The notes: generated by a model not told the origin, from the sequence alone. A stretch of 64,000 bases of DNA from an uncultured Actinomycetota bacterium (GCA_963826265.1 CAWGWH010000002.1:1283246-1347245), one strand, 5' to 3'; positions 11,106 to 45,297 are shown, counted from the stretch's first letter. Numbers and translations: made by a program.

Positions 11106-11143
11106 GGTGCGGGGCCACTCCACCCGGATGGGTCGGACGACCC

Positions 11144-12427: not shown

Positions 12428-12600
12428 GGCTCGGAGTGTGTCACAGGGCCGGCATCTGGCAGAGGTCCTGCGAGGGGGTGATGAGCGACACTCCTGCCAC
12501 GAATTGTCTGGGTTTGTTACTGCACGGTAGAGTCCGGCGACCCCCGGTCGGGGGTCCGTGGTCGGAGGGACCGCGATCCGTGGAGGGACTCTTCTTCATC

Positions 12601-29787: not shown

Positions 29788-30639
29788 TCACGGCACCGCG
29801 AGCAGGTCCTCGTGGTGGACGGTCACCCGGAGGGTGCCGGCCTGCGCCTGCGCCAGGCGTCGACGCGCGTACGGCGCGGCGACCGGTGCGAGCTCGGGTC
29901 GCTGCTCGACGGCGGCGCCGACCCAGCCGGTGACCCACGCCGCCGCCAGTGCGTGCTCGTCGGGACCGAGCCGCCACGGACTCGGGAGTGTGGTCACGGC
30001 GAGCCCGGCCGCGTCGAGCTGAGCGACGGCCGCGGCCGGGGCGTCAGGCCCGAGCAGCGTTCCTGAACCGGTCGCCCGCCGCTGGTGGGCGTTGAACGCG
30101 TCCATCACGTCCCCGTCGAGCTCGTCCGACGGCGCGAGCTCGGCGCGGCCGACCACCGAGAGCGTCACCAGCACCGGGCACCCGGCCACGAGGCATTCCG
30201 CGACCAGCCGTTCGAGCTCCGGAGCGGTCAGCATGTCGAGCAGCGCCGACGCCGTCACCAGATCGGCGTCGCTCAGCGACTCCGGGGGGAGCCGGGTGAT
30301 GTCGTCCAGACGGCGCTCGATCGTGGCAGCGCTGCCGTCGGCGGCCGCCGGCGGTGGGTACGCCGCCGCCCGGTCGAGCAGGTCGCGGTCCCGGTCGTGC
30401 AGTACCCACCGCTGGGGACCCGGCAGCCTCGGCGCGAGCCACCGCGCCATCGAACCGGTGCCGGAACCCAGGTCGTGGACCACCAGGCCGCCGTCGGCCG
30501 GCAGGACGCGGCGGAGCGCGTCGACGAGCCCACCGGCCCTGGCCGCCGCGTCGGCGGGCTCGCGGAGGGCGAGCCAGTCGCCGTCGGCACGGACCACCTC
30601 GGACCCCATGCCACCTCCCTCATCGTCGGACGTCGTCAC
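29788..30639 (-). CDS. SAM-dependent methyltransferase
   Basis: 283 aa with motif I VVHDLGSGTGS. It is convergent with the MMPL gene with a 6-nt gap. Confidence 0.7.
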   Translation of the reverse strand: MTTSDDEGGGMGSEVVRADGDWLALREPADAAARAGGLVDALRRVLPADGGLVVHDLGSGTGSMARWLAPRLPGPQRWVLHDRDRDLLDRAAAYPPPAAADGSAATIERRLDDITRLPPESLSDADLVTASALLDMLTAPELERLVAECLVAGCPVLVTLSVVGRAELAPSDELDGDVMDAFNAHQRRATGSGTLLGPDAPAAAVAQLDAAGLAVTTLPSPWRLGPDEHALAAAWVTGWVGAAVEQRPELAPVAAPYARRRLAQAQAGTLRVTVHHEDLLAVP

Positions 30640-30678: not shown

Positions 30679-31308
30679 TCAAGAGCTCAGACGCCTGAGA
30701 CTGGCGAGGACGTTGATCTCGCCGGCGTGTCCCACTCGGCCGGTCAGCGTGGCTTCACCGTCGAGCGGTGAGCCCAACACCCGTGCGACGGCGAGCTCGA
30801 GGTCTCCGGCCCTGACCAGCGTGACCATGCCCTCGTCGGTCACCGAGTCGACCGAGGTCACGTCCGGAGCCTCGCCGGAGGTGCCGCTTCCGCGCACCTG
30901 CATCCGGGGTGGGATGTCGACGCGCTCGCCATCTTGCTCGAAGTACATCTGCGCCTGCGTGCCGCCGGTCAGGATCGCGGCGGCCAGGGTGGCCGCCCAG
31001 ACCGGGTCGCCACAGCCGTCGTACACCCATCGATCCCCCAGCACGGAGTGCTCACTGGTCCCGATCAGGTGGGTCTCAGCCCCCGCGAGCGGAGTCGCAC
31101 GGTAGGTGAGCGGGGTCTGCAGCACGGCGCCGCCTTCGGACAGCCAGAGGATCGTCTCGACGCCCACCTCGCCGGCGGGATCGTCGAAGCGGTACTCGGC
31201 GAGCTTTTCCGCCACGGTGCGATCTGAGGCCCAGGACCGCGTCGGGAGCCACGACTCGACAAGCTCCTGCTTCGAGGGAGAGAGCGTGGCTCGGTGGACA
31301 ATGCCCAT
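30679..31308 (-). CDS. Maltokinase N-terminal cap-like domain protein (function unknown)
   Basis: 209 aa starting MGIVHRATLSPSKQELVESWLPTRSW, with ...YRFDDPAGEVGVE...LTYR...HSVLGDRWVYDGCGDPV. From memory, this matches stand-alone Mak_N_cap-like proteins. Confidence 0.55.
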   Translation of the reverse strand: MGIVHRATLSPSKQELVESWLPTRSWASDRTVAEKLAEYRFDDPAGEVGVETILWLSEGGAVLQTPLTYRATPLAGAETHLIGTSEHSVLGDRWVYDGCGDPVWAATLAAAILTGGTQAQMYFEQDGERVDIPPRMQVRGSGTSGEAPDVTSVDSVTDEGMVTLVRAGDLELAVARVLGSPLDGEATLTGRVGHAGEINVLASLRRLSS

Positions 31309-31412: not shown

Positions 31413-32138
31413 GTGGTCGTGGTGCCGGTCGGCCGGGCGCTCGCGGCTGGGCTCGTCGCGCTGTCCGCCCTGCTCGCCGGGCTGACGGCGAACCCCGGCC
31501 TGACTGTCCCGGCCTGGGGCACCGGGCTGGTGTGCGGCGGGCTGGTGGCGGTGGCGGTCGTCCGGGGCCTCGCTCGGGACGACGCAGATCACCTGACGCC
31601 GGCCGATGTGGTCACGCTGACCCGGGCCATGATCGCCTGCGCGGTCGCGGCCCTGATGGTGGAGTCGTGGCTCGGCCACACCGCGACGGCACTGCTCGTC
31701 GGGCTCGCGGTGATCGCCCTGGTGCTCGACTCGGTCGACGGCCGGGTGGCGCGGGTGACCCGGCGGTCGACCGGGTTCGGGGCGCGCTTCGACGGCGAGG
31801 CCGACGCGTTCCTCCTGCTCGTGCTCAGTGCCCACGTGGCGGCGTCGCACGGTGTCTGGGTGCTGGCGATCGGCGCCGCCCGCTACGCCTTCTGGGCGGT
31901 GGGGTCCGTCTGGCCGTGGCTGCGCAGTCCGCTCCCACGGCGCGACTGGCGCAAGGTCGTCACGGCCGTCCAGGGGATCGTGCTCGTCGCCGCCGCCGCG
32001 GACGTGGCGCCGCGGCCCGCGGTCACGCTGGCCCTGGTAGCGGCCCTGGTCCTGCTCACGGAGTCGTTCGGCCGAGACGTCCTCTGGCTGGTGCGGCGCC
32101 GGCCCCGGGCACGGCTCGTCGGAGCGTCCGCGCCGTGA
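31413..32138 (+). CDS. CDP-alcohol phosphatidyltransferase family protein
   Basis: 241 aa polytopic protein with a perfect DGx2ARx8Gx3Dx3D motif (DGRVARVTRRSTGFGARFDGEAD). Confidence 0.85.
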   Translation: MVVVPVGRALAAGLVALSALLAGLTANPGLTVPAWGTGLVCGGLVAVAVVRGLARDDADHLTPADVVTLTRAMIACAVAALMVESWLGHTATALLVGLAVIALVLDSVDGRVARVTRRSTGFGARFDGEADAFLLLVLSAHVAASHGVWVLAIGAARYAFWAVGSVWPWLRSPLPRRDWRKVVTAVQGIVLVAAAADVAPRPAVTLALVAALVLLTESFGRDVLWLVRRRPRARLVGASAP

Positions 32139-32896
32139 CCACCACCGACGACCGCGCCGCGTACGGGCTCGCCCTGGAGCAGGCACGGCAGGCGGCGTAC
32201 CCGCCCGGTGAGTACGTCGGGCAGGAGAGCTTCATGACGGCCTCCGAGATCCGCGCGCTGGCGGGGGGCGCGCGTATCGGCCGGGCGGACCGGGTGCTCG
32301 ACGTCTGCTGCGGGGTCGCCGGGCCGGGCCGTCTCGTGGCAGCCGAGACGGGATGTCGCTACCTCGGCGTCGACCTCGACCCGGGCGCTGTCGCGGCGGC
32401 CCGGCTGGCCGCGGCCGACCTGCCGTGCCGGTTCGAGGTACGCCGGGTGCCGCCCCTCCCGCCGGGAACCTTCGACGTCGTGCTGCTGCTCGAGACGTTG
32501 CTGGCCTTCCACGAGAAGCGGCCGCTGCTGGCGGCGGTCGCGGCAGCGCTGCGGCCCGGCGGCCGGTTCGCCCTGACGGTCGAGGAGGGGGCGCCGCTGA
32601 CCGCGCCGGAGCGAGCGAGGATGCCGGCGTCCGACACGGTGTTTCCGGTGCCGCTGCCCGACCTGGTCGACCTGCTGGAACAGGAGGGCTTCGGGGTCGA
32701 CTCGATCGAGGAGTGCAGTGATGCCCACCGGGACACGGCGGCGGCGCTGGCGGACGCGTTCGAGGCCGACGGGGTCTCGATCGGCGCCCAGATCGGGCTG
32801 GGCACGCTCGACGACCTGGTCGCGGCACACCGGCTCTGGGCCGAGTGGCTGGGTGCCGGCCGGATCCGCAAGCTGTCCCTCATTGCCGTCCGGTGA
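32135..32896 (+). CDS. Class I SAM-dependent methyltransferase, translationally coupled to the phosphatidyltransferase
   Basis: The GTG start overlaps the upstream stop (GTGA at 32135-32138). Motif I is VLDVCCGVAGPG. Confidence 0.8.
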   Translation: MTTTDDRAAYGLALEQARQAAYPPGEYVGQESFMTASEIRALAGGARIGRADRVLDVCCGVAGPGRLVAAETGCRYLGVDLDPGAVAAARLAAADLPCRFEVRRVPPLPPGTFDVVLLLETLLAFHEKRPLLAAVAAALRPGGRFALTVEEGAPLTAPERARMPASDTVFPVPLPDLVDLLEQEGFGVDSIEECSDAHRDTAAALADAFEADGVSIGAQIGLGTLDDLVAAHRLWAEWLGAGRIRKLSLIAVR

Positions 32897-32994
32897 ACCG
32901 CCGTCCGGTGAACCGCGGGGCGGCACCGCCCGTTCTCCCGGGTGACATCGCTCCGCGACCGTCGCGGGAGCGATCCCGACGAAGGGAGTGGCTC

Positions 32995-33411
32995 ATGGGC
33001 ACGCGCGTGCTGGCGGCGCTGGCGGTGCTGGTGTCGGCGGGGGTGCACCTCTACCTCTGGGACGACGGCTACAAGGACCTCGACAAGATCGGGCCCGCGT
33101 TCCTTCTCAACGCGGCCGGTGGGGTGGTGATCGCGGTGCTCCTGCTCGCCTGGTCCCACTGGATCCCGGCGTTCCTGGCACTCGGGTTCGGGGTGTCGAC
33201 GCTCGGCGCCTTCATCATCTCGACCACTGTGGGGCTCTTCGGACTGGAGGAGTCGTGGGAGGGCTGGTACGTGTGGACGGCGGCGGGTTCGGAGGTGGCC
33301 GCGATCCTGCTGGGTGGGATGCTCCTGCTCCGCAACAACCCGCTGCGCCCAGGTGGCTCAGGTGGCGAGTCGCAGCACCACGCGGCCGTCCGTCGTCCGG
33401 ACCTCCACTGA
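32995..33411 (+). CDS. Small 4-TM membrane protein, function unknown
   Basis: 138 aa from ATG 32995, preceded by GAAGGGAG. The 3' end overlaps the convergent anti-sigma gene by 54 nt. Confidence 0.5.
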   Translation: MGTRVLAALAVLVSAGVHLYLWDDGYKDLDKIGPAFLLNAAGGVVIAVLLLAWSHWIPAFLALGFGVSTLGAFIISTTVGLFGLEESWEGWYVWTAAGSEVAAILLGGMLLLRNNPLRPGGSGGESQHHAAVRRPDLH

Positions 33412-34080
33412 GGCGAGCTCGGCGGGCGTACGCGCGGTGGCGGCCATGATCGTCATCTCGCGGCCGCCCACCGACCGCCAGCTGCCGACCTGCTCCATGC
33501 GCCCGGTCCGAGTCCGCACGAACAGCTCGTAGTCGGCCTCCGGAGGCAGGTCGTAGGGGACCGCGTCCGGGTCGTAGGTGCACGTGAGCCCGACCCGGGT
33601 TCCCCAGGTGACCTCCTCCAGGCTCACGGTGGCCCGGACCGGCACCTCGCCGACCGGTGCCATCTGCAGCTCCGGCACCGGTTCCTCCGACACGTCGGCC
33701 GTGGGCTGCCCGGGCGGCGGTGCGGGGTCCTCGCCGAGCTGCGCGAGGCCCACGGGTACGACGACGAGCAGCGCCGAGGCGGCAGCGATCCCGGCCGTGA
33801 GCAGCGTGCGGCGGCGCCGGCTGCGTCGTACCTCGCCCATCAGCGCGGGCAGCAGTGTCGGCGGCGGCTCGTGCACCGGCCCGGCCATCGGCTCCTCGAG
33901 CACCGTGGCGTCGACGCGTCCGAGCAGGCCGGGGAGCCCCGCCAGCGCGGCAACCGACCGGGTGCAGACCGCGCACGTGGCCAGGTGCTGCTTGAAGGCC
34001 ACCCGCTCGGCCGGGGAGAGCGCTCCCAGCACGTAGGCGCCGTCGTCGTGCACGAACTCGCAGCTCATGGGGGTGTTCAT
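33358..34080 (-). CDS. Anti-sigma factor (zf-HC2 type) with one TM segment and an extracytoplasmic domain
   Basis: 240 aa from ATG 34080 (MNTPMSCEFVHDDGAYVLGALSPAERVAFKQHLATCAVC). Its start overlaps the sigma gene stop (ATGA). Confidence 0.75.
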   Translation of the reverse strand: MNTPMSCEFVHDDGAYVLGALSPAERVAFKQHLATCAVCTRSVAALAGLPGLLGRVDATVLEEPMAGPVHEPPPTLLPALMGEVRRSRRRRTLLTAGIAAASALLVVVPVGLAQLGEDPAPPPGQPTADVSEEPVPELQMAPVGEVPVRATVSLEEVTWGTRVGLTCTYDPDAVPYDLPPEADYELFVRTRTGRMEQVGSWRSVGGREMTIMAATARTPAELASVEVRTTDGRVVLRLAT

Positions 34081-34610
34081 GCCTCCACCCCCAGTTCCTC
34101 GAGCGCCAGCCGCAGCGCGCGCAGCGCGTAGTGCGTACGTGACTTCACCGTGCCCTCGGGGACCTCCAGGCGCCGGGCCGCCTCGGCGACCGGCCGGCCA
34201 CGGTAGTAGCACTCGAGCAGCACGTCGCGGTGCTCGCGTGACAGGCGGGTGAGTGCCTCGGCCACGACCCACGACAGCAGCAGCTGGTCACTCTCGTCGG
34301 CCACCCCGTCGTCGGGCAGCTCGGCGAGCGGCGTCTCGCGGTGGGAGCGGCTGCTCCGCCACTGGTCGATCACGATGTTGCGGGCGACGGTGAAGAGCCA
34401 CGCCCGCACCGCCTGCGGCGGACTCTCCAGGATGGTGCGGTGCCGCCAAGCGCGCAGCAGCGTCTCCTGGGCCACGTCCTCGGCCCGACCCTGGTCGGTG
34501 GGCACGAGCCGTCGGCAGTAGCGCCACAGGGCGACCGCGTGGTCGTCGTGCAGCTGCTGCATGAGCATGACGTCGGGATCGGGCACTGGATTGGACACCT
34601 GCTTCCTCAC
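34077..34610 (-). CDS. ECF-type RNA polymerase sigma factor
   Basis: 177 aa. Region 2 reads DVAQETLLRAWRH. Region 4 reads RDVLLECYYRGRPVAEAARRLEVPEGTVKSRTHYALRAL. Confidence 0.9.
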   Translation of the reverse strand: MRKQVSNPVPDPDVMLMQQLHDDHAVALWRYCRRLVPTDQGRAEDVAQETLLRAWRHRTILESPPQAVRAWLFTVARNIVIDQWRSSRSHRETPLAELPDDGVADESDQLLLSWVVAEALTRLSREHRDVLLECYYRGRPVAEAARRLEVPEGTVKSRTHYALRALRLALEELGVEA

Positions 34611-34640: not shown

Positions 34641-36338
34641 TCACCGCGGTCCGGTCGGCCGGTCCCCATTGTGGCTGCCACCGGCGTACGCCGCGACGAA
34701 ACGGTCCCGGAACGCGTCCATCCGCCACACCGGGGCGTCCGGCTCCGGTCGCAGGCCGGCGTCCCAGCCCCAGCCGGCGATCCGGTCGAGCACGGCCGGG
34801 TCGCGCGCGATCACCGCGACCGGCACGTCGTTCCCGGCATCGGACCCGGACACGATCGTGGCCGGCTGGTGGTCGCCCAGCACGACCACCACGAGGTCGT
34901 CGTCGCCATAGGTCGTCACGAACCGGACGAACGCCCGCAGTGAGTAGGTGACGGCGTCGAAGTAGGCCTGCCGCACCCGCTCGCGGTCGGGCCAGATGTC
35001 CGCCTCGGACGGGAGTGTCTGCGGCATCCCGTCGAAGACCGAGCCGTCGCCGACGTCGGCCTGGTCGATCAGCCGGGGGACCCGCGACCAGGGCGCGTGG
35101 CTGGTGATCAGGTCGATCTCCGCCATCACCGGCCGGCGCGGGTGCGGCGCGAGCTCGAGCCGGTGGAACGCGTCGAGGGTGTACTGGTCGGGCATCGTGG
35201 GGTAGCCGAACCGTGGGCCCTCGTAGCCGACGTTGCGCGAGTCGTAGACGTGGTCGAAGTCGTAGAACTCACCCTGCGGCCAGTCCCGGTTGTTGGCGGG
35301 GACGGAGGCCACCGTGCGCCAACCGGCCCGGCCGAACAGCCGCGTGAGGGTCAGCCGGGGGCTGGTCACCAGCACGTCGTACCGCGGCTGGCTGTCGATC
35401 CAGAGGCCCGACTGGAGCGTGGCGTGGGCCAGCCAGCTGAGTGCGCCGAAGGTCGGCGAGGTGAGGTAGGCGCTCCGGCTCTCGAAACCGGCCTCTTCCA
35501 GCTGCTCGTTGCCGGCGTCCATCGTGTACGTGACCCGCGGGGAGAGATCCGGATCCTCCAGCGCCACCCGGCCCAGGCTCTCGACGAAGACGATCAGCAC
35601 GTCCTTGCCGCGCAGGCCCTCGAGCAGGTCCTCGCCGGGCACGTCTCCCAGCGGATCGGAGCGGGAGGCCACCAGGAACTCGCGGCGGTCCGCCAGCTGC
35701 CCCGGGATCCGGGTGACCTGGCCCTGCACGTAGGTGGCGGTGTCGTGGCTGGCGATCGGACCGGCCGGGCCGCGTACGTCGAGCAGCGTGAGCACCAGCC
35801 AGAGCGCCGTCAGTACGGCCACCGCCGGCAGCGCCACGGCGCGGTGACGCGACGCCACCCGGGCTACCCGCAGCACCGCGAGCGGCAGCAGCACGAGCAG
35901 CGCGACCACGGCCACCCCACCCCCGACCACGAGGAGGGTGCCCAGCCGCGGCCCGAAGGAGTCGCGGACGGTCTCGACCAGGGAGGCGGCGTACCGCCAG
36001 TCGATCAGGGGGTCGAAGGGCCGGTTCAGCGCCTCGACGAACCCGATGTCGAACAGCTTGAACACCGCGGCCAGACCGAGGACCACCCCCGCGGTCATCG
36101 CCAGCGCCGAACGCAGCCACGCCGGCCGCGCCGGGACGAGCAGCACGGCAGCGACCAGGAGCACTGCTTCGACGGGCAGCCGGAGGAACGCCGAGGGACG
36201 CAGGTCCTCGAGGCTCGTCGGGGCGGTCATTGCCGCGACCACCAGGGCGAGCGCGAGCACCGACCGGACTACGGAGCCGACGCGTGTCCACCACGGGACG
36301 GAACCGGGTTGAACCGAGCGCACGGCCACTCCGTTCAC
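34641..36338 (-). CDS. Membrane-anchored sulfatase / LtaS-like (alkaline-phosphatase superfamily) phospho-headgroup transferase
   Basis: 565 aa with about 5 N-terminal TM segments, then VLIVFVESLG (metal-binding Glu context), TSPTFGALSW (candidate Thr nucleophile) and VVVLGDHQP. The start codon is GTG and the exact start is uncertain. Confidence 0.7.
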   Translation of the reverse strand: MNGVAVRSVQPGSVPWWTRVGSVVRSVLALALVVAAMTAPTSLEDLRPSAFLRLPVEAVLLVAAVLLVPARPAWLRSALAMTAGVVLGLAAVFKLFDIGFVEALNRPFDPLIDWRYAASLVETVRDSFGPRLGTLLVVGGGVAVVALLVLLPLAVLRVARVASRHRAVALPAVAVLTALWLVLTLLDVRGPAGPIASHDTATYVQGQVTRIPGQLADRREFLVASRSDPLGDVPGEDLLEGLRGKDVLIVFVESLGRVALEDPDLSPRVTYTMDAGNEQLEEAGFESRSAYLTSPTFGALSWLAHATLQSGLWIDSQPRYDVLVTSPRLTLTRLFGRAGWRTVASVPANNRDWPQGEFYDFDHVYDSRNVGYEGPRFGYPTMPDQYTLDAFHRLELAPHPRRPVMAEIDLITSHAPWSRVPRLIDQADVGDGSVFDGMPQTLPSEADIWPDRERVRQAYFDAVTYSLRAFVRFVTTYGDDDLVVVVLGDHQPATIVSGSDAGNDVPVAVIARDPAVLDRIAGWGWDAGLRPEPDAPVWRMDAFRDRFVAAYAGGSHNGDRPTGPR

Positions 36339-36349
36339 ACGACCGACGA

Positions 36350-36390
36350 GGGAACACGAGAAGGAACGAGCAGGTCGCCGCTCCGGTTCA
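36350..36390. promoter_or_regulatory. Palindromic ECF-type promoter motif readable on both strands in the 87-bp divergent region
   Basis: Plus strand: GGAAC(36363-36367)-N17-GGTTC(36385-36389). Minus strand: TGAACC-N16-CGTTCC. An additional GGGAAC lies at 36350-36355. Confidence 0.3.
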
Positions 36391-36424: not shown

Positions 36425-37423
36425 ATGCAGCGGGAGGCGTGGGCGTTCTGGTTGCGCGAGCCGGGCGCGGGAGAGATCCGGCCTGCCCGGCTCACACCAC
36501 CTGGGCCCGACGACGTGCTGGTCCGCACCGTGTGCTCCGGGGTGAGCCGTGGCACCGAGTCGCTGGTCTTCAGCGGGAGGGTCCCGACCGGGCAGCGCGC
36601 CGTCATGCGCGCGCCGTTCCAGGAGGGGGAGTTCCCGGCGCCGGTGAAGTACGGCTACCTCAACGTGGGAGTCGTCGAGGTCGGGCCGTCCGGGCTGCTG
36701 GGACGCACCGTCTTCTGTCTGCACCCCCACCAGACGGCGTACGTCGTCCCCGCCTCGGCGGTGACCCTGGTGCCCGACGACGTCCCGGCGCGCCGGGCGG
36801 TCCTGGCCGGACTGGTCGAGACCGCGGTCAACGCGCTCTGGGACGCCGGCCCGCTGCTCGGTGACCGGGTGGCCGTGGTGGGCGCCGGAGCCCTGGGCTG
36901 CTGCGTCGCCCGGCTGCTGGTCGCGATCCCCGGGGTCTCGGTGACGTTGGTCGACGTCGACCCCGGCCGAGCCGCGGTCGCGGCGGCCCTGGGCGTCGGC
37001 TTCTCGCTGCCCGGTGACGCGCCGGGCGACCTGGACCTCGTGATGCACACGAGTGCCACGTCGAAGGGGCTGCAACGGTCCCTGGAGCTGCTCGCGCCGG
37101 AGGGCACCGTCGTCGAGCTCAGCTGGTACGGCGACGCCGAGACGACCCTGTCGCTGGGAAGTGGCTTCCACTCCGGCCGGCTGACGATCCGCGGCAGCCA
37201 GGTCGGGTCGATCGCGGCGGCACGTCGTGTGCGGTGGACCACGGCCGACCGGCTCCGGCTCGCGCTCGACCTCCTGCGTGACCCGGCTTTCGACGTACTT
37301 CTGACCGGCCGATCCCGTTTCGCCGACCTCCCCGCGGTGCTGCCCAGGCTGGTGAGCGGCGAGCTCCCCGCCCTGTGCCACTCGGTGTCCTACGAGGACG
37401 GTGACCTGCCGTGTTCAGCGTGA
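36425..37423 (+). CDS. MDR-superfamily dehydrogenase (BchC-like subgroup, SGxSxGTE motif)
   Basis: 332 aa from ATG 36425 with GGGAG upstream. It has [10 protein letters not shown] and the Rossmann motif [10 protein letters not shown]. Confidence 0.85.
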
Positions 37424-37803
37424 GCGTGCGCGACCACATGATGGTCGCCCACAGCCTGCGCGGCGACGTCTTCGGCCCGGCGCAGGCGCTGCACGGTGCG
37501 ACGTTCGTGGTGGACGCGACGTTCGCCGGGCCGGCCGTGGACGACGACGGGATCCTGGTCGACATCGGCCGGGCCGCCGGCGCGCTGCGGGTGGTGGTCG
37601 CAGACCTGGGCTACCGCAACCTCGACGAGGACGACCGGTTCGTCGGTCGCAACACCACGACCGAGGTGCTGGCCCAGCACGTGGCCGACCGGTTGGCCGA
37701 GCAGGTCGGCGGCGAGGGACTGGGCGACGGCCGCGTGACCCGCCTGACGGTCACCCTGCACGAGTCGCACGTCGCGCGGGCGAGCTACGAGAGAGGGGTA
37801 TGA
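37411..37803 (+). CDS. 6-pyruvoyl-tetrahydropterin synthase / QueD-family T-fold protein, predicted non-canonical
   Basis: 130 aa with MMVAHSL...LHGATF aligning to the QueD AAHRL...C..LHGHSF region. The GTG start overlaps the upstream gene by 13 nt. Confidence 0.8.
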
Positions 37804-38843
37804 GTGTGACCCCGATCGTGACGATGGTCGCCCCGGACGGGGTCGGTGACCCGCTCCGGCCGAGCGGTGGCAACACCTACGACCGTCGGCTGTGCCAGGA
37901 GCTGGCGGCCGCCGGGTGGGCTGTCGACCTGCAGCTGGTCCCAGGTGGCTGGCCGCGGGCCGACGCGGAGTCACGTCTCCACCTGGCGGCCGTCCTGGCC
38001 CGGCCACCCGCCGGCGCCTCGGTGCTGCTCGACGGGCTGGTCGCGCTCGCCGCACCCGACGTGGTGGTGCCGGAGGGCCGGCGCCTCCGGACGGTGGTGA
38101 TCGTGCACATGCCGCTCGGCTACGCAGGCGAAGGAGCCGTGCTGCGCTCGGCGACCGCCGTCGTCGCCACCAGTCACTGGACCCGCCGCTGGCTGCTCTC
38201 CCGCCACCGGCTCGACCCGGCCCGCGTGCACGTCGCCGCACCGGGCGTCGATCCCGCACCGCCGGCAGCTGGGAGCCCCGAAGGCGGCTCCCTCCTGTGC
38301 GTCGGCGCGGTGGTGCCGGCGAAGGGGCACGACCTGCTCGTCGCCGCGCTGGCCTCGGTCGCCGACCTGCCCTGGCGGTGCGTGTGCGTGGGCCCGCTGG
38401 ACCGCGATCCGACGTACGTCGCCCGGCTCCGCGCCGACATCGCGGCGGCCGGCCTCGGCGACCGGGTCGAGCTCACCGGGCCGCTCACCGGGGGGCGCCT
38501 CGCCGCGGCCTACGCGGCGGCCGACGTCCTGGTGCACGCCAGCCGGGCCGAGACCTACGGGATGGTCGTCACCGAGGCGTTGGCCCGAGGTCTGCCGGTG
38601 GTCGCGTGTGCGGCGGGTGGGGTGCCGGAAGCGCTGGGGGCCGCACCCGACGGCGGCACGCCGGGTGTGCTCACCCCCGTCGACGACGTCGACGCCCTGG
38701 CACGCGCCCTGCGCGGCTGGATCACGGACGCCGGACTGCGCAGACGGTTGCGGGCCGCCGCACGGAGCCGACGGCCGCAGCTGGCCGACTGGCTGGCCAC
38801 GGGCCACCGGGTGGCCCGGGTGCTCGAGGACGTGGCGGCATGA
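37800..38843 (+). CDS. GT-B fold glycosyltransferase (GT4-like)
   Basis: 347 aa with the EX7E motif ETYGMVVTE followed by [10 protein letters not shown]. An ATGA overlap couples it to the upstream gene. Confidence 0.85.
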
Positions 38844-39724
38844 GTCCCCGGTGGGGGTGGCTCCTGGGTTCCGCCGTGCTCGTTGCCGTGGTGTGGTGGC
38901 TCGGTACCGACCCGTTCGTGAGCGGCGTACGCGCCCTCGACGTCGAGACCTTGGCGGTGGGCGCGGCGCTGGGCGTGCCGATCACCGTGGCGAGTGCGTG
39001 GCGCTGGCGACTGGTGGCGCGTGGACTGGGCGTCGACCTGCCGGTGGGCCGGGCGACGGCGGCCTGCTACCGGTCCCAGCTCCTCAACTCGGTGCTCCCC
39101 GGTGGGGTCCTCGGTGACGTGCACCGAGGCCTCGACCACGGACGCGCCGCCGGTGACTCGGCCCGCGGGCTGCGCTCGGTCGCCTGGGAGCGGACGGCGG
39201 GCCAGATCGTGCAGGCGTCGGTCGCCGTCCTCGTCCTGGTGCTGATGCCGTCACCGGCGCGGTCGTCGCTGCCGGGGATGCTCACGATCCTGGTCGTCGG
39301 CGTGGTGCTGCTCGCGGTCCTCGTGCGCCGCTGGTCGACGCTGCGAGCCGACCTCGCAATGCTGCTCGAGCGGCGGATCTGGCCCGGCGTGGTGCTGGCC
39401 TCGACCGTGGTCGTGGCCGGCCTGGTGGCGACCTTCGTCGTCGCCGCCCGTGCGGTCGGCGTCACCGCACCGCTGCCGACCCTGGTGCCGCTGGCAGTGC
39501 TGGTGCTGGTCGCGGCGGCCGTGCCCTCGAACCTGGCGGGGTGGGGGCCCCGCGAGGGCATGGCCGCCTGGGCGTTCGCCGCAGCCGGCCTGGGCGCGGA
39601 GCAGGGCCTGGCCACGTCGGTCGCGTTCGGCGTCATGGTGGTGGTGGCCGTGCTGCCGGGCGTCGCGGTGCTCGTCGTCGGGACGCGTGCGCGGGAAAGA
39701 GCGGAGGAGCCGGTCCATGGCTGA
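38840..39724 (+). CDS. LPG_synthase_TM / UPF0104-family membrane protein (homologous to the MprF flippase domain)
   Basis: 294 aa with about 8 TM segments and WRWRLVARGLGVDLPVGRATAACYRSQLLNSVLPGGVLGDVHRG. It has an ATGA overlap upstream and an 8-nt overlap downstream. Confidence 0.7.
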   Translation: MSPRWGWLLGSAVLVAVVWWLGTDPFVSGVRALDVETLAVGAALGVPITVASAWRWRLVARGLGVDLPVGRATAACYRSQLLNSVLPGGVLGDVHRGLDHGRAAGDSARGLRSVAWERTAGQIVQASVAVLVLVLMPSPARSSLPGMLTILVVGVVLLAVLVRRWSTLRADLAMLLERRIWPGVVLASTVVVAGLVATFVVAARAVGVTAPLPTLVPLAVLVLVAAAVPSNLAGWGPREGMAAWAFAAAGLGAEQGLATSVAFGVMVVVAVLPGVAVLVVGTRARERAEEPVHG

Positions 39725-40412
39725 GCGCCCGTACACGATCCTCAGCTGCGGGGTCTCGATCGACGGCTATCTCGACGCCGCGACCCCCGAGCGGCTGGTG
39801 CTCTCGAACGACGACGACCTGCGGCGGGTTGACGCCGTCCGGGCGGACGTCGACGCGATCCTGGTCGGCGCCGAGACCGTACGCCACGACAACCCCCGGC
39901 TGCTCGTGCGCGACGCCCGGCTGCGCGAGTGCCGGCGGGCCCGCGGGCTGGGCGAGCACCCGATGAAGGTGACGGTGACGCGAGGTGGTCGGCTCGACCC
40001 GACGGCGTGCTTCTTCGCGACCGGCGACTGCGAGAAGGTCGTCTACTGCGAACGAGGGAGCGTCGAGGCGGCCCGTGCCCGCCTGGGCTCGGTCGCGACC
40101 GTGGTCGACGGAGGTGACCCGGTAGCCATCCGCAGCCTGAGCGAGGACCTCTGGGGGCGCGGCGTACGACGGTTGATGGTCGAGGGGGGCGGGCAGATCC
40201 ACACGCAGTTCCTCACCGCCGGGCTCGCCGACGAGCTGCACCTGGTGGTGGCGCCGTTCTTCGTCGGCGACCCGCGGGCCCGCCGCTTCGTGGGGGCCGG
40301 CGCCTTCCCGTGGCACCCGGGGCACCGGGCGCACCTCGCGGAGACCCGTCAGATGGGCGACGTGGTGCTGCTGCGCTACGCCTTCGCTCCGGACCGGGAG
40401 GCCGTGTCGTGA
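39717..40412 (+). CDS. RibD C-terminal-domain reductase (diaminopyrimidine ribosyl reductase type) lacking a deaminase domain
   Basis: 231 aa with SIDGYLD, ILVGAETVRHDNPRL and MVEGGGQIHTQFLTAGLADELHLVVAPFFVG. Confidence 0.85.
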   Translation: MAERPYTILSCGVSIDGYLDAATPERLVLSNDDDLRRVDAVRADVDAILVGAETVRHDNPRLLVRDARLRECRRARGLGEHPMKVTVTRGGRLDPTACFFATGDCEKVVYCERGSVEAARARLGSVATVVDGGDPVAIRSLSEDLWGRGVRRLMVEGGGQIHTQFLTAGLADELHLVVAPFFVGDPRARRFVGAGAFPWHPGHRAHLAETRQMGDVVLLRYAFAPDREAVS

Positions 40413-41038
40413 GGCGCGCGACGGTACGCCGCTCGGTGCGGATGCCGCTGCGCATGGGCGGGGGAGAGGTCGTCGACGGCGTGGTGCACACCTTCGACGG
40501 CCTGGTGGACGACGCCGAGCACCTCGTGGTGGGGCTCGGTGTCGTCCAGGCGGGCAGGGTGCCGCTGGTGCGGCTGCACAGCGAGTGCCTGACCGGGGAC
40601 GCACTGGGCAGCGCCCGCTGCGACTGCGGCCCGCAGCTGGCCGAGGCGGTCGAGCGGCTGTCCGAAGTCGGCGGCTACCTCGTGTACCTGCGGCAGGAGG
40701 GGCGGGGGATCGGGCTGTACAACAAGATCGACGCCTACGCACTGCAGGATCGCGGGCTCGACACGTTCGAGGCGAACCGAGCGCTGGGTTTCGGCGACGA
40801 CGAGCGCTCGTACGGCGTGGCGGCGCAGATGCTCCTCGCGCTCGGGGTCGACCGGGTCACTCTGCTCACGAACAACCCCGACAAGGTCGGCCAGCTGCAC
40901 GCCGCGGGCGTGACCGTCGAGGACTTCCTGACCACCGGGCTGCACCTCTCGCCGGTCAACCGGCGCTACCTGTCGGCCAAGGCCGGCCACGGCCACCGGT
41001 TGCTCGGCCTGCTCGCGACGCACGCCGATCCGGCGTGA
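40409..41038 (+). CDS. ribA: Monofunctional GTP cyclohydrolase II
   Basis: 209 aa with LHSECLTGDALGSARCDCG (zinc Cys triad), YLRQEGRGIGLYNKIDAYALQD and LLTNNPDKV. A GTGA overlap couples it to the upstream gene. Confidence 0.92.
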   Translation: MRRATVRRSVRMPLRMGGGEVVDGVVHTFDGLVDDAEHLVVGLGVVQAGRVPLVRLHSECLTGDALGSARCDCGPQLAEAVERLSEVGGYLVYLRQEGRGIGLYNKIDAYALQDRGLDTFEANRALGFGDDERSYGVAAQMLLALGVDRVTLLTNNPDKVGQLHAAGVTVEDFLTTGLHLSPVNRRYLSAKAGHGHRLLGLLATHADPA

Positions 41039-41050
41039 GGCCTCACGCCG
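41031..41050. terminator. Perfect 20-nt palindrome spanning the ribA stop codon, between convergent ribA and the sigma gene
   Basis: CGGCGTGAGG/CCTCACGCCG. Confidence 0.4.
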
Positions 41051-41068
41051 TATCGGTGGGCCTCGGCG

Positions 41069-42025
41069 TCAGGCCGCCAGGTCGGGGTCACCCAGCCGGC
41101 GCAGCCGGTTGAGGGCCTCGCGCTCGAGCTGGCGTACCCGCTCGGCGGAGATGCCGTGCGTGGTCCCGATGTCGGCGAGCTTGTGCTGGCGGCCGTCGAC
41201 CAGGCCGTAGCGCGACCGGATGATGTCGGCCGACCGGTCGTCGAGCTGGCCGACCAGTGCGTTGAGCCGCTCGCGCGCCTCGTGGTCGAGCACGTCGAGG
41301 TCAGGCCCCGGGGTGCTCTCCTGCGCGATCAGGTCACCCAGCGAGGTGTCGCCGTCCTCATCGACCGGCGAGTCGAGGCTGACGTGCTCGCGACCCCACG
41401 AGAGGAGGTCGAGGACGCGCTCGAAGTCCATCCCGAGCTCGGCGGCGATCTCCTCCGGCTCCGGGTCGCGGCCGAGCTGGCGCTCCAGGGTGCGGCGGGC
41501 GCCGCCGACCTGGTTGAGCTCCTCGACGACGTGCACGGGGAGGCGTACGACGCGAGCCTGCTGCGCGATGCCGCGGGTGATCGCCTGACGCACCCACCAG
41601 GTCGCGTAGGTGGAGAACTTGTAACCCTTCGCGTAGTCGAACTTCTCGACAGCGCGGATCAGGCCGGTATTGCCCTCCTGGATCAGGTCCAGCATGGGCA
41701 TCTGGGCGCGGCCGTACTTGCGGGCGATCGAGACGACCAGCCGCAGGTTGGCGTTGATGAACGTGTTGATGGCGCGCTGGCCCTCTTCGGCCAGCCATTC
41801 CAGCTCTTCGCGGCTGGCGCGCATCGGGGCGCCGCCCTTGGCGCGGGCGATCCGGCCGGTGTCGAGCAGGTGCTGGGCCATCAGGCCTGCCTCGATCGTC
41901 TTGGCCAGCTCCACCTCGGTGGCGGCGTCGAGCAGCGGGTTGCGCGCGATCTCGTCGAGGTACAGCCCTACGCTGTCGCGACCCTCGATCTCGCGGGCCC
42001 GGGCGGTCGTGGTGCGTGTCGCCAT
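41069..42025 (-). CDS. Sigma-70 family, group-2-like RNA polymerase sigma factor (SigB/HrdD type)
   Basis: 318 aa from ATG 42025 with GGAAGGGGG upstream. It has regions 1.2 to 4 ([56 protein letters not shown]). Confidence 0.9.
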   Translation of the reverse strand: MATRTTTARAREIEGRDSVGLYLDEIARNPLLDAATEVELAKTIEAGLMAQHLLDTGRIARAKGGAPMRASREELEWLAEEGQRAINTFINANLRLVVSIARKYGRAQMPMLDLIQEGNTGLIRAVEKFDYAKGYKFSTYATWWVRQAITRGIAQQARVVRLPVHVVEELNQVGGARRTLERQLGRDPEPEEIAAELGMDFERVLDLLSWGREHVSLDSPVDEDGDTSLGDLIAQESTPGPDLDVLDHEARERLNALVGQLDDRSADIIRSRYGLVDGRQHKLADIGTTHGISAERVRQLEREALNRLRRLGDPDLAA

Positions 42026-42237: not shown

Positions 42238-44370
42238 TCAGGCCAGGCCCATCCGGTCCAGCACCCACGCCAGCGTGAACGCGCGATCGTGCCAGGCCTT
42301 GTAGCGCCCGGACACGCCGCCGTGGCCGGCTGCCATCTCGGTCTTGAGCAGGAAGTGCCGCCGGCCGGTCGCGGTGGCCCGCAGCCGGGAGACCCACTTC
42401 GCCGCCTCCACGTACAGCACCCGGGTGTCGTGCAGCGAGCACTCGGCGAGGATCGGCGGGTAGTCGACCGCCGCGACGTTGTCGTAGGGCGCGTACGACG
42501 CGATGTAGTCGTAGGTCTCCTGGTCCGCCTCGGGGTTGCCCCACTCGTCGTACTCGATGACGGTCAGCGGCAGCGACGAGTCCAGCATCGTGGTGAGGTT
42601 GTCGACGAACGGCACGCCCGCGACCACGCCGGCGAACGCCTCGGGCGCCAGGTTGGCCACCGCGCCGGCGAGCAGCCCGCCCGCGCTCGCACCCTCGGCA
42701 ACCAGCACGTCCGGACGGGTGAGCCCCGCGGCGACCAGGTGGCGGGCGCACGCGACGAAGTCGGTGAAGGTCGTGCGCTTGTGAAGCAGCTTGCCGTCGT
42801 CGTACCAGCGGCGCCCCATCTCACCGCCGCCCCGCACGTGGGCGATGGCGAAGCCGGCGCCGCGGTCGAGCAGCGACAGCCGGGCGATCGCGAAGTAGGG
42901 GTCCATGGAGGCCTCGTAGGCGCCGTAGGCGTAGAGCAGCACCGGGATCGGGCCGCCGCCGGTCGCGCCGCGGCGGCACACGAAGGAGATCGGGATCCGC
43001 TCGCCGTCCTCGGCCTCCGCCCACAGCCGGTGCTCCTCGTAGTCGGCCGGGTCGTAGCCGCCGAGCACGGGGAGCCGTCGCAACAGGGTCAGGCGACGCG
43101 AGGCGACCTCGTAGTCGTAGATCGACGACGGCACCGTCATCGAGGTGTAGCCGAGCCGGACCACCGGGGCGTCGAAGTCGGGGTTGCCGGACGACCCGAC
43201 GGTGTAGATCTCCTGGTCGAACTCGACCAGGAAGTCCTCGGCCACCCCGTCGGCCCCGAGCGTGAGCAGCCGGAGCTGGGTGAGGCCGGCGTTGCGCTGG
43301 TGGACCACCAGGTGGCCGGCGAACGCGTCGACGTCCTCGAGCCGGACCGCGGGATCGTGGGCGATCAGCGGTCGCCAGGCCTCGCCCGGGGTCGCCGCGA
43401 CCGGTGCGACGCCGAGCTCGAAGTCGGGACCGGTGCGGTTGTGGAGCACGAGCAGCACGTCCTCGCCGGCGATCACGGCGTGCTCGACGCCGTACTCCAC
43501 GCCGTCCTCGCGCTCGGCGAACACCCAGAGCCCGGCGTCCGGGTCCTCGGTGTCGAGGAGCCGCACCTCGGAGGTGATCTTGGAGGTGGAGACGACCTGC
43601 ACGAACCGGTCGCTGCGGCTGCGGCCGACCCCGGTCCAGAACCGTTGATCGGTCTCGTGGTGGACCAGCTCGTCGTCGGTCTGGTCGGTGCCGAGCCGGT
43701 GACGCCACACCTTGTCGGGCCGCCAGGTCTCATCGACGGTCGCGTAGTAGAACGACTCGCTGTCGGGGTGCCAGGTGGCGCCTCCGAGCACGCCGGTGAT
43801 CGTGTCGTGCAGCAGCTCGCCGGTGTCGAGGTCCTTCACGCGCACCGTGTACCGCTCGTCGCCCGTGGTGTCGGTGGCATAGGCGAGCAACTGCGTGCTC
43901 GGGCTCACCGACGAGCCGCCCAGGGAGAAGAAGTCGTGGCCCTCGGCGAGCCGGTCGAGGTCGAGCAGCACCTCTTCGCCGGGCAGTGCGGGCTGGTCGG
44001 GGGCGCAGTCCTGGTCGGGCTGCGGGGGAGTCCAGTCAGCTGGGTGGGTGACCGGGACCCGGCAGCTGGCGCCGTACTCGCGCCCCTCGAAGGAACGGCC
44101 GTAGTACCAGTAGCCGCGGCTGCGTGTCGGGACCGACAGGTCGGTCTCCAGCGTCCGGGCCTTGATCTCCTCGAAGATGGTCTGCCGCAGGTCCGCGAGG
44201 TGGGCCGTGACCGCCTGCGTGTGCTCGTTCTCCGCCTCGAGCAGGGCGAGCACCGCCGGGCTGTCCTTGTCGCGCAGCCACTCGTACTCGTCGACGCGGG
44301 CGCGGCCGTGGTGGGAGGTGGTGACCGGCCGGCGGTCCGCGACCGGTGGGGAGAGCAGGGGCTGCGACAT
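42238..44370 (-). CDS. ptrB: Oligopeptidase B (prolyl oligopeptidase family S9A)
   Basis: 710 aa from ATG 44370 (MSQPLLSPPVADRRPVTTSHHGRARVDEYEWLRD). The catalytic region reads GASAGGLL. The longer ORF-track entry reaching 45264 is an antisense extension. Confidence 0.9.
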   Translation of the reverse strand: MSQPLLSPPVADRRPVTTSHHGRARVDEYEWLRDKDSPAVLALLEAENEHTQAVTAHLADLRQTIFEEIKARTLETDLSVPTRSRGYWYYGRSFEGREYGASCRVPVTHPADWTPPQPDQDCAPDQPALPGEEVLLDLDRLAEGHDFFSLGGSSVSPSTQLLAYATDTTGDERYTVRVKDLDTGELLHDTITGVLGGATWHPDSESFYYATVDETWRPDKVWRHRLGTDQTDDELVHHETDQRFWTGVGRSRSDRFVQVVSTSKITSEVRLLDTEDPDAGLWVFAEREDGVEYGVEHAVIAGEDVLLVLHNRTGPDFELGVAPVAATPGEAWRPLIAHDPAVRLEDVDAFAGHLVVHQRNAGLTQLRLLTLGADGVAEDFLVEFDQEIYTVGSSGNPDFDAPVVRLGYTSMTVPSSIYDYEVASRRLTLLRRLPVLGGYDPADYEEHRLWAEAEDGERIPISFVCRRGATGGGPIPVLLYAYGAYEASMDPYFAIARLSLLDRGAGFAIAHVRGGGEMGRRWYDDGKLLHKRTTFTDFVACARHLVAAGLTRPDVLVAEGASAGGLLAGAVANLAPEAFAGVVAGVPFVDNLTTMLDSSLPLTVIEYDEWGNPEADQETYDYIASYAPYDNVAAVDYPPILAECSLHDTRVLYVEAAKWVSRLRATATGRRHFLLKTEMAAGHGGVSGRYKAWHDRAFTLAWVLDRMGLA

Positions 44371-44377
44371 GTGAGCC

Positions 44378-44387
44378 AATCTAGTGT
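44378..44387. promoter_or_regulatory. Two overlapping -10-like hexamers for back-to-back leaderless transcripts
   Basis: Minus strand: TAGATT (complement of 44378-44383) lies 7 nt before ATG 44370. Plus strand: TAGTGT (44382-44387) lies 7 nt before GTG 44395. Confidence 0.4.
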
Positions 44388-44394
44388 GGCGACG

Positions 44395-45297
44395 GTGAGC
44401 AGCCTCCGACAGGACCAGGTCACCGATCCGGACGATCCGCTGGTCGCCGAGCTCGCCGAACGCCAGTGGCGCTGGCGGATCCGGCACCGGTACGCCGACG
44501 AGGCGACGGGGCGGGACGCGGCGGCTGCGCTGGTGCGCGAGCTGTTCGAGCACTCGCGGCTGGTGCGCACCCCGATCGGGTTCGTGTGGCTCGGACCCGA
44601 CGGCGAGCACACCTTCGTCCACGACGTACGGGCAGAGGGCGGGGACCCGCGGCACGTGGCGGCGCTGCGCGCCCTGGCCACGGACCTCGCCGGCTCGCCG
44701 CTCGCCGCCGGCGCCCCGCCGGGGGAGCCGAGCCGCGAGGCGTTCGTCGGCGACGGGACGTTCCGGCTCACGGCGACCTCGATGCGGCTCGACGTCACGG
44801 GGCCGGTGCCGGGGGAGGAGCTGGCCGCCCGGGCCGACGTCACTGCGATGACCGTGGCGGAGGTGCGGGCCTACCGGGACGGCGCCGTGCTGTCCTACGC
44901 GCAGTCGCGGACGGAGGCAGGGGAGTCGCCGGAGCTGGCCCGCACGAGCTCCGAGGCGGCCTTCGACGAGCTGCTGCCGAGCGCGCGGCCCGGCCCGGAC
45001 CAGCACCTGTTCACCATCCGTCACGCCGGCGAGCGCGCGGGCGTGCTGTGGGTCTGCCGGCGCTGGCCGGCTCAGGCGTGGGTGTACGACGTGGAGGTCG
45101 ACCCGGCCTGGCGCGGCCACGGGCTGGGCGCGGCGGCGATGGTGCACGCCGCCCGGTGGACGCGCGCGGCCGGCCTGCCCTGGCTGGGACTCAACGTCTT
45201 CGGCCCCAACGTCCACGCCCGCTCGCTCTACGAGCGACTCGGCTACGTCGTCGAGGAGGAGCACTTCGCCCGCGAACCGTCCACAGCCGAGGCATGA
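44395..45297 (+). CDS. Two-domain protein with a C-terminal GNAT acetyltransferase domain
   Basis: The C-terminus WVYDVEVDPAWRGHGLGAAAMVHAARW...LYERLGY is GNAT motif A/B. GTG 44395 is preferred on promoter geometry and GTG 44386 is possible. The ORF-track entry from 42016 is antisense to ptrB. Confidence 0.65.
   Translation: MSSLRQDQVTDPDDPLVAELAERQWRWRIRHRYADEATGRDAAAALVRELFEHSRLVRTPIGFVWLGPDGEHTFVHDVRAEGGDPRHVAALRALATDLAGSPLAAGAPPGEPSREAFVGDGTFRLTATSMRLDVTGPVPGEELAARADVTAMTVAEVRAYRDGAVLSYAQSRTEAGESPELARTSSEAAFDELLPSARPGPDQHLFTIRHAGERAGVLWVCRRWPAQAWVYDVEVDPAWRGHGLGAAAMVHAARWTRAAGLPWLGLNVFGPNVHARSLYERLGYVVEEEHFAREPSTAEA

Follow-up and report, generated by a model that had tools for sequence, protein, structure and literature searches.

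A widespread PTPS-IV gene cluster that places GTP-processing enzymes beside membrane and envelope genes in Actinomycetota

What kind of product would bring an enzyme acting on GTP, a glycosyltransferase and a flippase-like membrane protein together in one operon? The question is raised by a 64,000-nucleotide stretch of DNA from an uncultured Actinomycetota bacterium (GCA_963826265.1 CAWGWH010000002.1:1283246-1347245, hereafter the window), in which six open reading frames (ORFs) follow one another on the plus strand at 36425-41038, every neighbouring pair overlapping. An earlier reading of this DNA, the original prediction, described them as an orphan, translationally coupled operon, and its coordinates and junctions agree with ours and with public protein calls. 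We report here that the operon is a further member of the known PTPS-IV or SCO6650-SCO6655 type of cluster, in its RibD_C variant, and that the cluster is about twice the reported size, spanning approximately 29.8-41.06 kb of the window. The explanation that we favour, although we would give it somewhat less than an even chance, is a dedicated route, separate from those to riboflavin, folate and queuosine, which would lead from GTP to a glycosylated, methylated pterin-like polyol coupled to a membrane lipid or an envelope glycan.

The six-gene operon

The genes of the operon and the signals on either side of it are the following:

36310-36390, plus strand: two tandem promoter-like motifs of the extracytoplasmic function (ECF) type, GAAC-N18-GTT, in the 101-bp divergent intergenic region between an LtaS-like gene and the operon
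36425-37423, plus strand: BchC-like medium-chain dehydrogenase/reductase (MDR), 332 amino acids (aa), first in the operon, its translation coupled to that of PTPS-IV
37411-37803, plus strand: T-fold protein of the PTPS-IV subfamily, SCO6650 orthologue type, 130 aa (PF01242)
37800-38843, plus strand: GT4 glycosyltransferase (retaining, GT-B fold), 347 aa (Glycos_transf_1, 104 bits)
38840-39724, plus strand: polytopic membrane protein of the MprF flippase-domain family, 294 aa (LPG_synthase_TM, PF03706)
39717-40412, plus strand: stand-alone RibD_C pyrimidine reductase, 231 aa (PF01872, 128.5 bits)
40409-41038, plus strand: GTP cyclohydrolase II (GCH II) of canonical type, 209 aa (PF00925, 179 bits)
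41023-41058, no strand assigned: likely operon terminator hairpin, overlapping the GCH II stop codon, between convergent genes

The physical gene order is thus MDR, PTPS-IV, GT4, flippase-like, RibD_C, GCH II; the original prediction listed the right families, but in a different sequence. Five of its family calls lie above the Pfam gathering score (PTPS 76, Glycos_transf_1 104, LPG_synthase_TM 83, RibD_C 128 and GTP_cyclohydro2 179 bits), while that of the MDR is weaker, with ADH_zinc_N below its cut-off, and is backed by a match to the bchC model. The MDR and PTPS genes share a 13-nucleotide overlap (37411-37423), the PTPS/GT4 and GT4/flippase-like junctions are both ATGA (37800-37803 and 38840-38843), the flippase-like and RibD_C genes overlap by the 8 nucleotides ATGGCTGA (39717-39724), and the RibD_C/GCH II junction is GTGA (40409-40412). 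GC content at the third codon position is 0.90-0.95 in all six frames, versus 0.45-0.59 at the second, the pattern that genuine genes should show at a genomic GC content of 72%; the cluster has the same GC content as its surroundings (window approximately 72%). The six translations, with identical starts and stops, are already public as called proteins of the lengths listed, and these copies sit together on one 1.93-Mb NCBI/ENA contig. No plasmid match for the operon was returned by megablast against plasmids.

The six genes are likely to form one expression unit, as had been proposed, given the overlaps at every junction, the lack of any convincing internal terminator in the operon and the strong 3' hairpin (minimum free energy -32.9 kcal/mol for 41020-41075; z-score -2.96, one of 200 shuffles folding as well). 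A terminator-like site at 40243-40256, inside RibD_C, has five pairs only and was treated as chance. Upstream, the two motifs (GAAC at 36311-36314 with GTT at 36333-36335, and GAAC at 36364-36367 with GTT at 36386-36388) are both kept in four related loci (L001, L002, L003 and L005). They fit ECF-type promoters and may function as such, an ECF sigma/anti-sigma pair being encoded next door; no sigma-70-type site was found in this intergenic region.

Riboflavin operons of Actinomycetota are usually preceded by a flavin mononucleotide (FMN) riboswitch leader. No Rfam family, the FMN riboswitch included, reached its gathering score anywhere in the window, no tRNA was found, and neither the six genes nor the scanned flanking genes include a pyrimidine deaminase, 3,4-dihydroxy-2-butanone 4-phosphate synthase, lumazine synthase or riboflavin synthase. 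On both grounds the cluster is not a riboflavin operon, which the original prediction had likewise concluded.

Conservation and extent of the cluster

The description of the operon as an orphan has to be abandoned. Its PTPS family comprises more than 8000 protein clusters at 90% identity, and carriers were found in at least 595 species-level genomes (one genome per species scanned), among them Nocardioides, Micromonospora, Streptomyces, Nocardiopsis, Pseudonocardia, Terrabacter and Solirubrobacterales. Moreover, a neighbourhood of PTPS-IV genes with PF00925 (GCH II) and PF01872 (RibD_C) was reported in 2017 (AGeNNT, PMC5445326), and both of these genes share an operon with PTPS-IV here.

We searched 80 loci with the window proteins and took neighbour counts, to which the figures in this paragraph refer, from the 57 loci that have full 8-kb flanks. 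An MDR orthologue lies directly upstream of the PTPS gene in 56 of the 57, and the GT4, flippase-like, RibD_C and GCH II genes are present in 53, 50, 47 and 41, respectively; all six operon genes occur together in 27 loci, in the order of the window in 9. Further genes recur with them: a CDP-alcohol phosphatidyltransferase within 8 kb (50/57; in 33 loci the immediate divergent neighbour of the MDR gene, in 5 downstream with the same orientation), an in-cluster S-adenosylmethionine (SAM)-dependent methyltransferase (41/57) and an LtaS-like gene within 8 kb (40/57). The conservation seen in these recurrent neighbours, a point that the original prediction had left to a gene-neighbourhood check, spans orders and classes of Actinomycetota, with rearrangements.

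The cluster also extends beyond the six genes to which it had been confined. Upstream of the operon, at 29.8-36.3 kb of the window, lie genes for a CDP-alcohol phosphatidyltransferase, for two methyltransferases and for an LtaS/LtaP-like transferase, together with an ECF sigma/anti-sigma pair:

29788-30639, minus strand: SAM-dependent methyltransferase (Methyltransf_25), orthologue of the in-cluster methyltransferase of related loci
31413-32138, plus strand: membrane protein of the CDP-alcohol phosphatidyltransferase family, approximately 241 aa (PF01066, 51.4 bits), start codon uncertain
32135-32896, plus strand: second SAM-dependent methyltransferase, 253 aa, frame assigned from codon-position GC
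32995-33411, plus strand: small hydrophobic protein, approximately 138 aa, relatives in 11 of 80 loci, weak cluster membership
33358-34080, minus strand: membrane-anchored anti-sigma factor, 240 aa (zf-HC2, 3.8e-7; one hydrophobic helix)
34077-34610, minus strand: ECF sigma factor, 177 aa (Sigma70_r2 and Sigma70_r4)
34641-36323, minus strand: LtaS/LtaP-like polytopic protein with a C-terminal sulfatase/alkaline-phosphatase-superfamily domain, 560 aa, divergent from the operon

In related clusters the methyltransferase gene normally sits between GT4 and the flippase-like gene; here it is displaced to 29788-30639, which was the only match in the window to the in-cluster methyltransferase of locus L017 (59% identity over 273 aa). 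The second methyltransferase starts with a GTG that overlaps the stop codon of the CDP-alcohol phosphatidyltransferase gene (GTGA), carries motif I as VLDVCCGVAGPG, matches the DVU_1556-family methyltransferases (1.1e-15) and has relatives in 17 of the 80 loci. The ORF at 32359-33159 on the minus strand gave conserved tblastn matches in 17 loci, yet codon-position GC marks it as a shadow of this plus-strand gene and it was rejected, a caution for any ORF-based reading of high-GC DNA. The sigma and anti-sigma genes are coupled through an ATGA overlap, and the pair adjoins the cluster in 14/57 full loci, a lineage-specific association. The small hydrophobic protein had no family match. Between the displaced methyltransferase and the CDP-alcohol phosphatidyltransferase, at 30679-31308 on the minus strand, lies a gene for a CG0192-related protein with a maltokinase N-terminal cap domain; it has no relative in the 80 loci and is probably not part of the cluster.

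Could such a cluster produce an antibiotic or toxin derived from a pteridine or pyrimidine, in the manner of toxoflavin? GCH II and RibD-type enzymes start toxoflavin-type pathways, and tailoring enzymes (a glycosyltransferase and methyltransferases) are at hand. The distribution of the cluster is nevertheless very broad and largely vertical, its GC content equals that of its surroundings, its neighbours are housekeeping genes (polA, rpsA, a primary-like sigma factor and a Y-family polymerase) and the typical resistance and regulatory genes were not seen, all of which makes a specialised metabolite of this kind highly improbable.

The GTP enzymes and the PTPS-IV protein

RibD_C has its best NCBIfam match to the archaeal reductase model TIGR01508 rib_reduct_arch (130.8 bits, below the 186.45 cut-off), versus 80.8 bits for eubacterial RibD, and its best structural matches are 5XV5, 6P8C and 2AZN. 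It therefore appears closest to archaeal and fungal-type 2,5-diamino-6-ribosylamino-pyrimidinone 5'-phosphate reductases, which act before deamination. GCH II is a strong match to RibA (NF001591, 248.8 bits versus a cut-off of 148), and its translation retains both the zinc-binding Cys triad (HSECLTGD...RCDCG) and the switch Tyr (KIDAY110ALQD), a residue that reportedly allows deformylation, according to Spoonamore et al. in 2006 and Ren et al. in 2005.

Comparison of loci revealed two variants of this module, as 55/57 full loci have either RibD_C or a creatininase-family gene, but not both. The GCH II residue aligned with Tyr105 of the Escherichia coli enzyme is Tyr wherever a RibD_C locus carries GCH II (36 of 36, the window with its Tyr110 among them), and Met, His, Gln or Leu in 11 of the 11 creatininase loci. 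The window represents the commoner variant, RibD_C with Tyr-type GCH II, while the creatininase variant was found in Streptomyces, Nocardiopsis and one Pseudonocardia locus. In SCO6655, the GCH II paralogue of the Streptomyces coelicolor region, Met at this position is said to halt the enzyme at the formylated intermediate (Spoonamore et al., Biochemistry 2006). The creatininase family includes the archaeal and rhizobial formamidases ArfB and BrbF, which act on such an intermediate (PMC9478397). As a candidate ArfB, the creatininase-family protein of the Streptomyces variant was not accepted, as it scored below all model cut-offs, matched ArfB weakly and had MftE as its best match. Taken together, the mutual exclusion of RibD_C and the creatininase-family gene and the covariation of the switch residue suggest that the GTP module is functional and tuned to the cluster.

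The original prediction pointed to a related cluster in S. coelicolor around SCO6650-SCO6655. Indeed, the PTPS-like protein of the window is 65% identical to SCO6650 (PDB 3D7J, E 1.9e-45), and the window shares synteny of this type with 11 Streptomyces, Nocardiopsis and Pseudonocardia loci; the Streptomyces loci L025, L060, L076 and L078 have the MDR-PTPS-GT4 backbone, with methyltransferase, flippase-like, CDP-alcohol phosphatidyltransferase and GCH II genes nearby. The comparison has to be amended in one respect, as the two belong to different variants: the Streptomyces type has a creatininase-family gene in place of RibD_C, Met at the GCH II switch and no LtaS-like gene within 8 kb, whereas RibD_C, a GCH II of the Tyr type, an LtaS-like gene and the ECF sigma pair are found in the window.

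PTPS-IV is a subfamily of COG0720, reportedly described by Phillips et al. in 2012. The window protein scores 76.1 bits against PF01242 (cut-off 22.4) and, as predicted, is degenerate with respect to canonical PTPS. When aligned to rat PTPS (1B66), the catalytic Cys42 is replaced by Ala (GPA for GKC), the Asp-His dyad is lost, with DHKNLD becoming (G/S)YRNLD and thus Asp-His becoming Gly/Ser-Tyr, and one of the three zinc-binding His residues is missing, HGH being HGA in 14 of 14 aligned PTPS-IV members. By contrast, Glu85, which anchors the 2-amino-4-oxo-pyrimidine face, is invariant (NTTTE in PTPS-IV aligning with STTEN of the rat enzyme). Of what defines a catalytically canonical PTPS or QueD, the protein therefore keeps the anchoring Glu and lacks both the Cys with its Asp-His dyad and the three-His zinc site. 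That new histidines are strongly conserved suggests that the protein has been re-tooled and has not simply decayed. At residues 21-25 the Cys-containing motif is replaced by FGPAQ, the signature of the PTPS-IV subfamily (PMC5445326), and the protein resembles the published subfamily also in lacking CxxxHGH-type motifs and in its PF00925 and PF01872 neighbours (PMC5445326). The published descriptions differ from what is seen here in that the dehydrogenase, GT4, the methyltransferase and the membrane module go unmentioned, the only functional statement being the link to cofactor F420 from unpublished data.

The gene coupled to that of PTPS-IV encodes the MDR, whose ADH_zinc_N match (29.2 bits) falls just under the 31.8 cut-off of Pfam. 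It matches the bchC model TIGR01202 (1.2e-14), has weak matches to the structures of polyol dehydrogenases (iditol, sorbitol, galactitol-1-phosphate and idonate dehydrogenases) and carries a GxGxxG motif, VVGAGALG. The 90% cluster of this protein (P0246) holds one 715-aa member, from a 146-kb ENA contig; this may be a true fusion, unless it is an artefact of gene calling across the divergent region.

These enzymes would also be compatible with an archaeal-style early pathway that yields a ribityl-aminopyrimidine precursor for riboflavin or F420, in which PTPS-IV fills a missing step. Many Actinomycetota make F420, and RibD_C is of the archaeal type. Involvement of PTPS-IV in F420 synthesis has been stated from unpublished data (PMC5041015), and the Streptomyces variant combines a non-Tyr GCH II with an enzyme of the family to which ArfB and BrbF belong (PMC9478397). 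We nevertheless regard this pathway as quite unlikely. Four proteins with no role in flavin or F420 synthesis, namely GT4, the methyltransferase, the CDP-alcohol transferase and the flippase-like protein, match the GTP enzymes in their degree of conservation; the core is present also in Xanthobacter, Stappia and Salinarimonas; neither an FO synthase nor a lumazine synthase or FMN riboswitch lies nearby; and the 2-amino group is removed on the way to flavins, yet PTPS-IV retains a residue that binds it.

Alternatively, two unrelated modules might merely adjoin each other, GTP-processing paralogues on one side and an envelope glycolipid or glycan set on the other, with no shared product. In favour of this, GCH II is missing from 16/57 full loci and RibD_C from 10/57, and in the window the sigma/anti-sigma pair separates the lipid genes from the operon. 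We consider such an arrangement very unlikely, as GT4, the flippase-like gene, RibD_C and GCH II have overlapping start and stop codons in the window, the linkage outlasts changes of gene order across Streptomyces, Micromonospora, Nocardioides, Solirubrobacterales and Alphaproteobacteria, and the GCH II switch residue covaries with the type of cluster.

The membrane and envelope genes and a possible product

The nearest solved structures to GT4 are sucrose-phosphate synthase (6KIH), MshA, PimA and PimB', of which MshA and PimA glycosylate polyol phosphates and phosphatidyl-polyols. The flippase-like protein matches PF03706 with 82.7 bits over residues 7-273, and the TIGR00374 flippase-like domain at 7e-8, and has hydrophobic segments. 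It consists of the transmembrane domain only, lacking the aminoacyl-phosphatidylglycerol synthase domain, and with 15 bits against the bifunctional MprF model (cut-off 600) it does not qualify as MprF itself; a sequence search against solved structures gave no relative. The CDP-alcohol phosphatidyltransferase had weak best matches to archaetidylinositol-phosphate, phosphatidylinositol-phosphate, phosphatidylserine and phosphatidylglycerol-phosphate synthases, and the exact protein, with its start at 31413, is absent from the public collection.

The LtaS-like protein, whose start is fixed by its identity to a public protein (P0121), has five to six N-terminal hydrophobic helices and matches PF00884 with 26.1 bits, against a cut-off of 25. 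A single-sequence search against solved structures found nothing, whereas the only solved match to the family profile was the Listeria lipoteichoic acid primase LtaP (4UOP), at a weak 2.4e-4. In that alignment the metal-Glu, Thr and GDH motifs correspond (VFVES, TSPT and GDHQ), and the invariants of the family are E248, T288-S289-P290-T291 and D484-H485. An AlphaFold2 model built from a 33-sequence alignment was too poor for use (pLDDT 55, pTM 0.45).

PTPS-IV was found also outside the Actinomycetota, in Xanthobacter, Aquabacter, Salinarimonas and Stappia. Five alphaproteobacterial loci (L055, L081, L082, L083 and L084) keep the MDR-PTPS-GT4-methyltransferase core, three of them with RibD_C nearby, and in all five the core is divergent from a gene for a large (583-618 aa) Glyco_trans_2_3 membrane glycosyltransferase. 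The two that were scanned against NCBIfam, from L081 and L082, match the OpgH/MdoH glucan-synthase models, that of L081 passing NF003963 with 954 bits. Thus two unrelated envelope enzymes occupy the same position beside the same core in two phyla, and we take this to be the strongest indication that a membrane lipid or an envelope glycan is where the product ends up. As for the individual loci, an OpgC-like gene lies upstream in L082, a Methyltransf_21 gene adjoins that of the glycosyltransferase in L083 and L084, and in L055 (Aquabacter) GCH II is 373 aa long (11597-12718) and matches the long RibA model PRK08815 over its full length, which implies an extra N-terminal domain that the 209-aa enzyme of the window lacks.

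The same comparison allows a different conclusion, namely that the product is a soluble cofactor or pigment of the pterin glycoside type, akin to the glycosides of biopterin and neopterin made by cyanobacteria and Chlorobium, with the membrane proteins merely exporting it or serving a separate process. The core common to both phyla consists only of MDR, PTPS-IV, GT4 and the methyltransferase, and the membrane partner differs between them. Against this, the core is linked in both phyla to a membrane enzyme that forms lipids or glycans, the flippase-like gene of the window overlaps GT4 and RibD_C, and the enzyme found within 8 kb in 50 of the 57 loci, the CDP-alcohol transferase, belongs to a family whose members make phosphodiesters and do not transport solutes. 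In its favour, bacterial pterin glycosides are established (PMC13259868), and the core mirrors the reductase-PTPS-glycosyltransferase logic of pteridine glycoside synthesis (PMC5683033). On balance we hold a soluble product to be unlikely.

A route to a membrane-linked product, which we prefer, could proceed as follows. GCH II, if it follows established RibA chemistry, would open GTP to 2,5-diamino-6-ribosylamino-pyrimidinone 5'-phosphate, and RibD_C would then reduce the ribosyl to a ribityl chain without prior deamination, so that the 2-amino group is kept. The coupled BchC-like MDR and re-tooled PTPS-IV might remodel the polyol chain, plausibly by oxidising a secondary alcohol and then closing the ring to give a dihydropterin. 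Judging from their families, GT4 would add a sugar and the methyltransferase, or both of them, would methylate the product. The families of the membrane proteins and their conserved linkage suggest that the CDP-alcohol phosphatidyltransferase could join a head-group hydroxyl to CDP-diacylglycerol, that the MprF-type flippase-like protein could move the resulting lipid to the outer leaflet, and that the LtaS/LtaP-like enzyme may hand the phospho-head group to an envelope acceptor. The upstream motifs point to the neighbouring ECF sigma factor as a possible driver of expression.

Several observations weigh against this route. The chemistry after GCH II is a prediction from protein families and names no product, and the MDR itself stays below the Pfam cut-off. 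Clusters of the Streptomyces type have neither the reductase nor an LtaS-like gene within 8 kb, which means that the RibD_C reduction and the lipid or envelope steps are not universal. Likewise, scans of three alphaproteobacterial loci with window proteins or Pfam revealed neither a CDP-alcohol phosphatidyltransferase nor a flippase-like gene, and a phospholipid anchor is accordingly not universal either. The CDP-alcohol transferase could use another CDP-alcohol donor, the assignment of the LtaS-like protein is weak, given its profile match and the unusable structure model, and the F420 link stated for PTPS-IV would lead elsewhere.

Known systems offer partial parallels. Cyanobacteria and Chlorobium make pteridine glycosides by means of GCH I, PTPS, sepiapterin reductase and a pteridine glycosyltransferase, which resembles the present cluster in combining a cyclohydrolase, a PTPS fold, an NAD(P)-dependent oxidoreductase and a group-1 glycosyltransferase (PMC5683033). 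The window differs in having GCH II for GCH I, an MDR for the short-chain reductase, a PTPS without the Cys, the Asp-His dyad and one zinc His, and extra methyltransferases with a lipid or envelope module; the glycosyltransferases are likened by family only. The syntheses of phosphatidylinositol mannosides (PgsA1-PimA) and of lipoteichoic acid (LtaS/LtaP) and the substitution of osmoregulated periplasmic glucans (OpgB) appear to share with the cluster the logic of a CDP-alcohol phosphatidyltransferase, a PimA/MshA-related GT4, a flippase-type protein and a membrane-anchored transferase of the sulfatase superfamily. In this case, however, none of these proteins reaches the cut-off of a named-family model, and the head-group precursor would be derived from GTP rather than from inositol or glycerol phosphate. 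Finally, RibA and TrpF of Chlamydia bypass GCH I, a precedent for a GCH II product becoming a pterin of the dihydroneopterin type (PMC4161248); that pathway uses an Amadori isomerase and leads to folate, unlike the reductase, dehydrogenase and T-fold protein found here in a non-folate context. In line with the original prediction, no paper in the literature searched names a product of the cluster, and Actinomycetota are absent from a June 2026 review of bacterial pterins.

In its most specific form, the proposal would be a new class of membrane lipid or envelope substituent, a glycosylated, methylated pterin or ribityl-diaminopyrimidine head group derived from GTP and placed on CDP-diacylglycerol, flipped by the MprF-type protein and, in many Actinomycetota, transferred by the LtaS-like enzyme, with a related substituent on OpgH-made periplasmic glucans in Alphaproteobacteria. 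We regard this form as tentative and somewhat doubtful.

Elsewhere in the window, one 459-aa protein (9726-11105) fuses the domains of RmlC (dTDP-4-dehydrorhamnose 3,5-epimerase) and RmlD (reductase). It is followed at 11102-15545 by three consecutive plus-strand ORFs (319, 241 and 795 aa) with no Pfam match at 1e-5 and a slightly lower GC content of 0.68-0.69, a stretch that may be a mobile or defence islet, and then by a DUF222 gene (15597-16913, minus strand). Beyond the operon, at 42238-45264 on the minus strand, is a gene for a prolyl oligopeptidase family protein with approximately 300 N-terminal residues without Pfam match before the propeller domain.

Questions about the function of SCO6650 and the PTPS-IV subfamily, and of the odd GCH II paralogue SCO6655, go back to 2006-2008, and the cluster to which they belong is carried by hundreds of Actinomycetota from soil, Streptomyces and Micromonospora among them, as well as by some Alphaproteobacteria. 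What we add is, first, a full inventory of parts, linking the GTP enzymes with an enzyme that forms phospholipids, with a flippase-type protein and with an LtaS-like transferase; second, a clean division into two variants, the switch residue of GCH II following the identity of the partner enzyme; and third, a minimal four-gene core common to two phyla. Should the product be a soluble pterin glycoside, this would be the first such pathway to start from GCH II; should it be a pterin-like lipid or envelope substituent, it would represent new envelope chemistry in a very large group of bacteria.

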